Shown: positions 33,251 to 33,461 of the stretch, in pieces
Position numbering within the stretch: position 1 is the first letter of the stretch
How the letters are laid out: each line of letters opens with the position of its first letter
DNA from: Myxococcales bacterium
GTDB lineage: Bacteria > Myxococcota_A > Polyangia > Haliangiales > Haliangiaceae
Assembly: GCA_016707895.1 (NCBI GenBank)
Contig: JADJGV010000002.1
Location: 527,695-591,694 of the forward strand
Direction: 5' to 3'
Length of the DNA: 64,000 nucleotides
Made by a program: the position numbers and the translations under genes
The notes under the pieces: model-generated
What the model was told of the DNA's origin: nothing
Databases searched by the model: none
The model's input: only the letters and a program-made list of their open reading frames with translations

Positions 33251-33372
33251 GAAGTCCCCCGTGGTGGTGTCGACATCGTCGACGGAAAGCGGTCTGCCGC
33301 CACTGTCCCCGGGAGCGGCGTCCGGTGCAACCGCCCCGCCCCTGCGATGCCAGGCGGCGGCGCTTCGTCGCA

Positions 33373-33393
33373 GGCGCGGCGCGGTTGCATTAT
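33373..33393. promoter_or_regulatory. AT-rich 7-N7-7 inverted repeat ATGGTGT-N7-ACACCAT in the MVP upstream region (candidate operator, overlapping a CATAAT -10-like hexamer)
   Basis: Perfect 7-bp arms inside an unusually AT-rich patch (TTGCATTATGGTGTCCAATGTACACCATGAACACG) about 125-145 bp upstream of the MVP start, within a 212-bp intergenic region. Confidence 0.35.
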
Positions 33394-33461
33394 GGTGTCC
33401 AATGTACACCATGAACACGAGCGCGCAAGGGGCCCCCGTTCGGCGACGAACCTCCTGCGAT

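Follow-up and report, generated by a model that had tools for sequence, protein, structure and literature searches.

A candidate operator overlapping a putative distal promoter upstream of the major vault protein gene of a Myxococcales bacterium

Introduction

The classical bacterial operators that overlap sigma-70 promoters include the LexA SOS boxes, the tetO sites of TetR and the operators of the ArsR/SmtB repressors. LysR-type regulators recognize boxes in which T-N11-A is part of an interrupted dyad such as ATAC-N7-GTAT, located near position −65. The CRP/FNR family, which is common in myxobacteria, recognizes sites of the form TGTGA-N6-TCACA, and its member MrpC of Myxococcus sites of the form GTGTC-N8-GACAC. 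This work concerns an AT-rich island with an interrupted dyad that lies upstream of a gene coding for a major vault protein (MVP) homolog; such homologs are widespread in Myxococcota. The gene is contained in a 64-kb stretch of DNA from a Myxococcales bacterium (contig JADJGV010000002.1 of assembly GCA_016707895.1, positions 527,695 to 591,694), which will be called the window.

The interpretation to which we give an even chance of being correct is that the island is a clade-specific distal promoter of the sigma-70 type, P1, crossed by the operator of an unlinked dimeric regulator, and that it works together with a second promoter, P2, which is conserved and nearer the gene. The element itself would plausibly be a control element of an ordinary kind, a promoter with its operator, and its interest comes mainly from the target gene, as the regulation of bacterial vault proteins is not described.

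Results

The MVP gene and its upstream region

The MVP homolog (30752..33250, minus strand, 832 amino acids) matches the Pfam families MVP_shoulder (E = 8.6e-26) and Vault_3, in agreement with a preliminary description of this region, in which MVP had been named as the gene downstream of the island. Protein searches gave thousands of homologs, many of them carrying the name major vault protein. At this gene the nearest public relative (L001) shares 98% MVP identity and comes from a metagenome-assembled genome (MAG) that carries the label Myxococcales bacterium; further near homologs belong to Kofleriaceae MAGs. For comparison, about 160 loci with MVP orthologs were obtained from scans of genome and metagenome collections and from exact-protein look-ups; the fetched loci are designated by L-numbers (L001, L010, L149, etc.).

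The start codon of MVP was fixed at the ATG in positions 33250-33248 of the minus strand, because the N-terminus MDER or MDDR is common to all the orthologs compared, a Shine-Dalgarno sequence precedes this ATG (Table 1) and the in-frame extension on its 5′ side is not kept in relatives. The intergenic region comprises positions 33251-33461, from the MVP start to the stop codon (33462) of a co-directional open reading frame (ORF) of 355 amino acids. It had been correctly located before as the region upstream of MVP, with a length of 212 bp that is in fact of 211 nt.

A dyad with conserved arms, linked to MVP genes

The island is one of only three segments in the 64 kb with a 35-nt G+C content of 46% or less, which places it in the lowest 0.03% of windows. 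Its AT-rich character had been rightly noticed, the background being 74.6% G+C in the window instead of the approximately 72% assumed for the genome. Within the island, the perfect 7-N7-7 inverted repeat that had been described is indeed present, with arms ATGGTGT at 33392-33398 and ACACCAT at 33406-33412, 142 nt upstream of the MVP start codon (33250). If one mismatch is allowed, the repeat extends to arms of 10 nt with 1 nt between them. Taken alone, the palindrome is not beyond chance: perfect 7-N(0-10)-7 inverted repeats appear in 24% of the dinucleotide shuffles of the 211-nt region, and there are 263 of them in the window. Repeats with arms as AT-rich as those of the dyad occur at only three loci of the window. 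Since the palindrome by itself is unremarkable compared to shuffles, the case for the dyad must rest on its behaviour in relatives.

The relatives with 98–100% MVP identity display five distinct haplotypes of the element (Table 1), while on its 3′ side their sequences are nearly identical. Only 1 of the 14 columns of the arms is variable, versus 11 of the 17 columns that make up the 7-nt spacer plus 10 nt on its upstream flank (Fisher p = 0.0023), a comparison that counts few independent events as the haplotypes are closely related. The variants of the spacer in close relatives are ACATTGG, ATGTTGA and ATCATGC. Arms that remain constant around a variable spacer are the pattern expected of a protein-binding dyad. 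L155 is a more distant locus (90% MVP identity) and carries an indel of 6 nt at the site; it still shows TAGTGT-N7-ACACGA.

When the palindrome was looked for at MVP orthologs and elsewhere, as the preliminary description had suggested, the core dyad was found, within the 1.4 Mb of related loci, solely upstream of MVP genes. In 1.33 Mb of the loci there are 7 occurrences of GTGT-N7-ACAC, in 7/7 cases upstream of an MVP gene, and in the same sequences the spacer lengths other than N7 show no bias towards MVP upstream regions. The longer core T.GTGT-N7-ACAC.A gave 10 exact matches in 1.375 Mb, all of them located 131–161 nt upstream of an MVP start; they correspond to the window clade, to L155 and to L010, the upstream context of the latter being unrelated. 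In L011 there is a copy of the dyad with one mismatch at −81 from MVP. With up to 2–3 mismatches allowed, no copies of the palindrome were found in the window and 1.39 Mb of loci beyond the same element in relatives.

The dyad is missing from most MVP orthologs, including L040 and L154 (both with 90% MVP identity) and the group with 82–87% identity. Judging from the sequences compared, its conservation is that of a narrow clade, with sporadic recurrences outside it, and the element as a whole belongs to a species-level clade plus one relative at 90% identity, without being a general feature of MVP promoters. A lack of conservation in orthologous promoters had been mentioned as an argument against the operator; it holds for most orthologs, and it does not hold for the narrow clade or for the sporadic recurrences.

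Candidate sigma-70-type promoter sequences overlapped by the dyad

The hexamers CATAAT (33394→33389) and, 17 nt upstream on the MVP strand, TGTTCA (33417→33412) had been described as sigma-70-like elements, and both are present. CATAAT is among the only four hexamers in the 64 kb, counting both strands, that coincide with TATAAT in at least five of six positions with A2 and T6 kept. Its equivalents are TATAAT in L001 and L076, CATCAT in L149 and CATAAT in L154, and it is absent in L155; the consensus form in L001 and L076 and the retention in L154 lend the box a measure of support from relatives. The role of TGTTCA as −35 element could not be maintained, because it varies among relatives (CGTTCA, CGATCA, ACTTGA), and the combination TTGCGC-N16-TACATT is better conserved and higher scoring. 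The two possibilities will be called register A (with CATAAT as −10) and register B (with TTGCGC and TACATT as −35 and −10).

The −10 of register B is TACATT, TATGTT, TATCAT or TAGTGT depending on the haplotype, with free middle positions, and the distance from TTGCGC to TAnnnT is fixed at 16 nt in six haplotypes although the intervening sequence diverges. In sigma-70 promoters the conservation of the −10 element is highest at T1, A2 and T6. These three positions, together with the TTG of the −35, are kept by the pair TTGCGC/TAnnnT, while the corresponding conservation is not seen in TGTTCA.

A sigma-70 position weight matrix (PWM), with the composition of the genome as background, was used to rank the approximately 128,000 positions of the window. 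TTGCGC-16-TACATT scored 11.6 (7th in rank, and the best of the intergenic region) and TTCATG-15-CATAAT scored 11.1 (10th). The two registers are 12 nt apart and both may be in use; CATAAT is possibly a second, overlapping −10, or else it is part of the initially transcribed region of register B. Either way, the dyad overlaps the core promoter: with register B it would extend from approximately −18 to +3, and with register A it would cover the spacer and the edge of the −10. The L011 copy of the dyad is flanked by a perfect TTGACA and by CACATT; these two hexamers are separated by 16 nt and score 15.1 with the PWM.

So, of the operator across the promoter of a vault locus that was initially proposed, the outline stands, as the arms are kept, the recurrence is linked to MVP and the dyad overlaps the best sigma-70 candidates. 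The promoter register and the generality of the element had to be revised, and so had the idea of a stable locus, which is considered below.

A conserved proximal promoter-like element and the roles proposed for P1 and P2

The promoter-like sequence P2 is located between P1 and the MVP gene (Table 1). An alignment of 12 sequences, with 82–99% MVP identity and differing upstream genes, shows three invariant parts: GTTG at its −35 region, TCC.G within the spacer, and positions A2 and T6 of its −10. In the relatives without P1, P2 is the top or the second PWM match. The composite pattern TTGCNC-N16-18-nACAnT has 2 matches in the 64 kb, which are P1 and P2, versus 0.21 expected (2 of 100 shuffles reach 2), and in 2.75 Mnt of the loci (both strands) 21/25 matches are upstream of MVP. 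Considering its wider conservation, its PWM rank and the linkage of the composite pattern to MVP, P2 is the likelier basal promoter of MVP, with P1 as a clade-specific addition. Thus, as candidate for the basal promoter, the island gives way to P2, which is nearer the gene and more widely conserved.

In the tandem arrangement favoured here, a holoenzyme of the sigma-70 family would use TTGCGC, the 16-nt spacer and TACATT, with a transcription start near 33394, and 12 nt further downstream CATAAT may serve as the −10 of a second register. A helix-turn-helix regulator, dimeric and encoded elsewhere than nearby, would bind T.GTGT-N7-ACAC.A and could block either the binding of polymerase or the formation of the open complex; given the position of the dyad across the core promoter, this regulator would act as a repressor. 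The transcripts from P1 would have a leader of approximately 144 nt, with a hairpin of great stability at its beginning, and would continue across P2. It can be envisaged that P2 provides basal expression, while P1 adds conditional expression. The start at the island, the binding of a protein and the repression are what we infer from the features found, from their pattern of conservation and rarity, and from their recurrence upstream of other MVP genes.

Besides the close relationship of the haplotypes compared, several points weigh against this interpretation. The conserved P2, if it acts as its sequence suggests, already accounts for MVP transcription without P1, and this weakens the island as "the" promoter of MVP. 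A consensus sigma-70 scan detected no promoter at the island, as TGTTCA fits TTGACA at only 3/6 positions, and TTGCGC fits it equally at 3/6. Registers A and B appear inseparable on the pattern seen in two of the relatives, since L154 keeps CATAAT without the dyad and TTGCGC, and L155 keeps TTGCGC, TAnnnT and the dyad without CATAAT. There is no second copy of the dyad in the window. Finally, Pfam scans revealed no DNA-binding or helix-turn-helix gene within approximately 15 kb of MVP, or adjoining MVP in L010, L011 and L155.

A somewhat unlikely alternative is that an activator or a looping repressor of P2 uses the dyad as its distal site, with no transcription start in the island and with −10-like hexamers that are incidental to its AT-richness. 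The persistence of P2 across the relatives with 82–99% identity, and its being the better candidate for main promoter, agree with this. So does the location of the dyad centre (33402), approximately 107 nt upstream of the predicted P2 start. In L010 and L011 the dyad is placed 49–88 nt upstream of a sigma-54 promoter, a position typical of upstream sites, and in its geometry, T-N11-A, GTGT-N7-ACAC is like the LysR-type boxes. However, the distal site would leave unexplained the invariant TTGCGC at a fixed distance of 16 nt, the T-A-N3-T within a variable spacer, and the fact that two sigma-70 PWM scores from among the ten best of the 64 kb fall at this very site. Moreover, no divergent LysR-type gene is present.

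Table 1. Coordinates of the features of the MVP upstream region, and haplotypes of the element in close relatives.
Feature	Position	Strand	Remarks
AT-rich island TTGCATTATGGTGTCCAATGTACACCATGAACACG	33385..33419	.	43% G+C; contains the dyad and the −10 candidates
Dyad ATGGTGT-N7-ACACCAT, core T.GTGT-N7-ACAC.A	33392..33412	.	Perfect 7-N7-7; candidate operator
TTGCGC	33423..33428	-	Candidate −35 of P1, register B; invariant in 6 haplotypes including L155
TACATT	33401..33406	-	Candidate −10 of P1, register B; T1, A2, T6 invariant
CATAAT	33389..33394	-	−10 of the preliminary description, register A; best PWM partner TTCATG at 15 nt
TGTTCA	33412..33417	-	−35 of the preliminary description; unconserved
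P2: TTGCAC (33330-33325), 17-nt spacer, GACAGT (33307-33302)	33302..33330	-	Promoter-like; 99 nt downstream of P1
Long GC-rich hairpin	33326..33389	-	22-nt arms, 20/22 paired; directly downstream of P1
Shine-Dalgarno GGGGGA	33255..33260	-	4 nt before the MVP ATG; kept in the clade
355-aa ORF	33462..34529	-	Co-directional, upstream of MVP; no Pfam match; unstable MVP neighbour
Element haplotype, window and L157		MVP strand	...TTGCGCGCTCGTGTTCATGGTGTACATTGGACACCATAATGCAA
Element haplotype, L156 and L158		MVP strand	GCTCGCGTTC in flank
Element haplotype, L001		MVP strand	CCCGGCGTTC...ACACTATAAT
Element haplotype, L076, L130 and L153		MVP strand	GCTCGCGATCATGGTGTATGTTGAACACTATAAT
Element haplotype, L149		MVP strand	GCCGGACTTGATGGTGTATCATGCACACCATCAT

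An unstable neighbourhood

The locus L149 does not contain the segment equivalent to positions 33430-34546 of the window, an indel of approximately 1.1 kb that carries the 355-aa ORF. The junction occurs exactly at CTTGCGC, so that the −35 candidate TTGCGC of P1 is at the exact edge of the L149 homology. There, MVP and the P1 element face a divergent 130-aa gene, ortholog of window 34593-34985. The P1 element stays with MVP in this locus, where the upstream gene has been lost or replaced. Concerning the 355-aa ORF, its product has a proline-/alanine-rich middle and a predicted membrane segment. A tyrosine-recombinase core site, considered for the adjacent indel in view of the 7-7-7 geometry of the dyad, was rejected because the haplotypes differ in their spacers and no gene for a recombinase turned up.

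This setting bears on another possibility, which we consider unlikely, namely that the element is non-functional, being a chance palindrome in an AT-rich remnant at an indel junction. Apart from the frequency of similar repeats in shuffled sequences, it would be in accord with the island abutting the junction of the 1.1-kb indel, and with the absence of the element from L040 and the relatives at 82–87% identity. Against it, chance would hardly keep the arms while the spacer varies, nor the N7 spacing through the indel of L155, and the dyad, present again in L010 and L011, is confined to MVP upstream regions in the 1.375 Mb of loci.

On the other side of the gene, a 52-bp perfect direct repeat of the 3′ end of MVP, including its stop codon, occurs at 21124-21175 and 30739-30790. 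The two copies flank a cassette of approximately 9.6 kb (21175-30739) with genes for a WGR+DUF4132 protein (27644-30721), an AAA_5/MoxR ATPase, a VWA_CoxE protein and a SWIM-like protein. L001 lacks the cassette, and there the equivalents of window 21173-17523 come directly after MVP. As this cassette of WGR-DUF4132/MoxR/VWA genes downstream of MVP is missing from a relative with 98% MVP identity, the "vault locus" of the preliminary description is not a fixed operon. The conserved neighbours downstream of MVP are predicted lipoproteins and a cNMP-binding/phosphoribulokinase protein. The latter type of protein, a fusion of a cNMP-binding and a phosphoribulokinase/uridine-kinase part (18214-20385, minus strand; 6253-8370 in L155), is a recurrent near neighbour of the gene in the window clade as well as in L001 and L155.

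Hairpins and other features at the RNA level

The long GC-rich hairpin downstream of P1 (Table 1) has a predicted fold of −46.9 kcal/mol, with z = −3.7 versus shuffles. Among relatives, no compensatory changes were found in it, and its stem is not kept in L155. In L154 the CATAAT box is followed by a different long hairpin (z = −2.35). The hairpin downstream of P1 could act as a 5′ stabilizer, as a roadblock or as a small RNA. Considered as an RNA hairpin, the small palindrome of the dyad folds no better than shuffles (z = −0.75). No intrinsic terminator was called in 32900-33900, and no T-run follows either hairpin. A search of Rfam in 33100-33600 with a permissive E-value gave best scores of 13–21 bits, versus gathering scores of 36–268 bits.

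These data can be used to evaluate whether the palindrome and the hairpin with its 22-bp stem form an RNA-level element, either the 3′ end or terminator of the transcript of the upstream ORF, or a structured leader, which seems very unlikely. It is true that the only change seen in the arms (C to T) would keep a G-U pair on the MVP strand, that the stability of the downstream hairpin and the occurrence of CATAAT with a long hairpin in L154 would be compatible with it, and that the upstream genes are co-directional in the window and in L154. Nevertheless, there is no U-tract, no terminator call and no Rfam match, the small palindrome is not especially stable, the long hairpin is devoid of compensatory changes, and the element persists in L149, with its divergent upstream gene.

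Even more improbable, in our estimation, is that P1 drives a structured non-coding RNA of approximately 65–100 nt, instead of or besides the MVP mRNA, that would be a candidate bacterial counterpart of the eukaryotic vault RNA. Such a transcript would pair its 5′ and 3′ parts as the 22-bp stem 33389-33326, directly upstream of P2. The z-score of the hairpin and the CATAAT-hairpin combination of L154 speak for this idea, and the lack of a U-tract and of covariation, plus a stem that is unconserved beyond the species-level clade, speak against it.

Two other observations were made in the leader. The sequence CUCCCG, in the spacer region of P2 (33308-33313, minus strand), is conserved and predicted to pair with the Shine-Dalgarno sequence CGGGGG (33255-33261) in transcripts started at P1. 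The transcripts started at P2 would lack CUCCCG, so the efficiency of translation could depend on the promoter used. The blocks CCTGCGACG and GGCATCGCA (TGCGA-N20-TCGCA; 33343-33374, minus strand), between P1 and P2, are kept both in their sequence and in their spacing by the window clade as well as by L154 and L155.

Sigma-54-type promoters of other MVP genes

Among 124 distinct upstream regions of MVP orthologs, 36 contain a sigma-54 −24/−12 match that starts 26–36 nt before the ATG, versus 3.3 expected. With boxes so near the MVP ATG (e.g., CGGCACATTCGCTGCA; L015, L026, L049, L053, L065, L103, L132 and others), the mRNA would be nearly leaderless, and several of these loci have no Shine-Dalgarno sequence. 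A GCATC motif recurs just upstream of the sigma-54 boxes in more distant MVP orthologs. A palindrome of another sequence, GCTCC-N5-GGAGC, occurs 27 times in the 1.375 Mb of loci, 26 of them upstream of MVP and clustered near −75 and −116 (examples are L033, L042, L046, L095, L108 and L040). Presumably a dedicated sigma-54 activator binds to it. The gene of this activator does not adjoin MVP: in a scan of 161 sequences, made up of the fetched loci and the window, only 6 had a GAFTGA motif. In the window clade there is neither a sigma-54 −24/−12 box nor a GCTCC-N5-GGAGC site. As far as promoter sequences tell, MVP regulation has evidently been rewired within Kofleriaceae.

That the island be itself a sigma-54 promoter, with the GG-N10-GC core of TGGACACCATAATGCA on the MVP strand, has a negligible probability: the core spacing is present in the window and such boxes are frequent in MVP orthologs, yet the near-invariant GG is changed to GA in L076, L130 and L153 and to GC in L149 in an element that is otherwise preserved, the boxes of the orthologs are much closer to the ATG than the approximately 150 nt of this one, and GCTCC-N5-GGAGC is absent here.

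Discussion

The search for a regulator among neighbouring genes identified none. The only gene common to the dyad-bearing loci (window, L010 and L011) is MVP. The only clear regulator gene of the window is ArsR-like, at approximately 58 kb, and it has its own, different palindrome. This is AATATAGCC-GATG-GGCTATATT (58329-58350, with an N4 spacer), the one other palindrome of similar AT-richness in the window, located in the most AT-rich island of the window, directly upstream of the ArsR/SmtB-like gene (57967-58323, minus strand), with a perfect TTGACA alongside (58329-58355) and the top sigma-70 PWM score of the window. From its sequence, 58329-58355 looks like a textbook autoregulated operator-promoter. 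The coincidence of an AT-rich palindrome with a TTGACA promoter indicates that the architecture proposed for P1, a palindrome on a promoter, is used in this genome. Concerning the ORF that follows the ArsR-like gene, its product is putatively SRPBCC/AHSA1-like.

A study of bacterial MVP homologs (10.1101/872010) contains nothing on promoters, operons or regulators, and a literature search on the T.GTGT-N7-ACAC.A motif or on bacterial MVP regulation found nothing. A defined operator would be a handle toward the regulator and, via the regulator, toward the signal that switches MVP on. Most Kofleriaceae orthologs have sigma-54 promoters with GCTCC-N5-GGAGC sites, and the window clade has sigma-70-like tandem promoters with a different dyad, which represents a fast regulatory turnover. 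This contrast of promoter types across MVP orthologs suggests that MVP expression is conditional and that it has been rewired repeatedly.

Concerning the likeness of the P1 element to known systems, we know of no operator that fits a T.GTGT half-site with a 7-nt spacer, and none was found in the literature either. The dyad is like the CRP/FNR sites in its GTG...CAC symmetry. Nevertheless, CRP and MrpC were discarded because the spacing is off: the dyad is GTG-N9-CAC, versus GTG-N8-CAC for CRP, and GTGT-N10-ACAC is the corresponding MrpC arrangement. With the LysR-type boxes it shares a 4-N7-4 geometry, GTGT-N7-ACAC, that contains T-N11-A. It differs from them in overlapping the candidate −10 instead of being near −65, and a LysR-type box was rejected for this wrong position and because the window has no LysR-type gene nearby, and neither has L149 with its divergent neighbour.

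With the sigma-54-type MVP promoters of most other Kofleriaceae, the element has in common the same target gene and the occurrence of palindromic upstream sites specific to MVP, while the window clade departs from them in its Shine-Dalgarno-bearing leader and its sigma-70-like elements. From the classical repressor operators the dyad differs in that no gene for a binding protein stands beside its target. The candidate operator otherwise resembles them in the design of the site, i.e., a dyad of approximately 21 bp across the −10/start region, with conserved arms and a free spacer.

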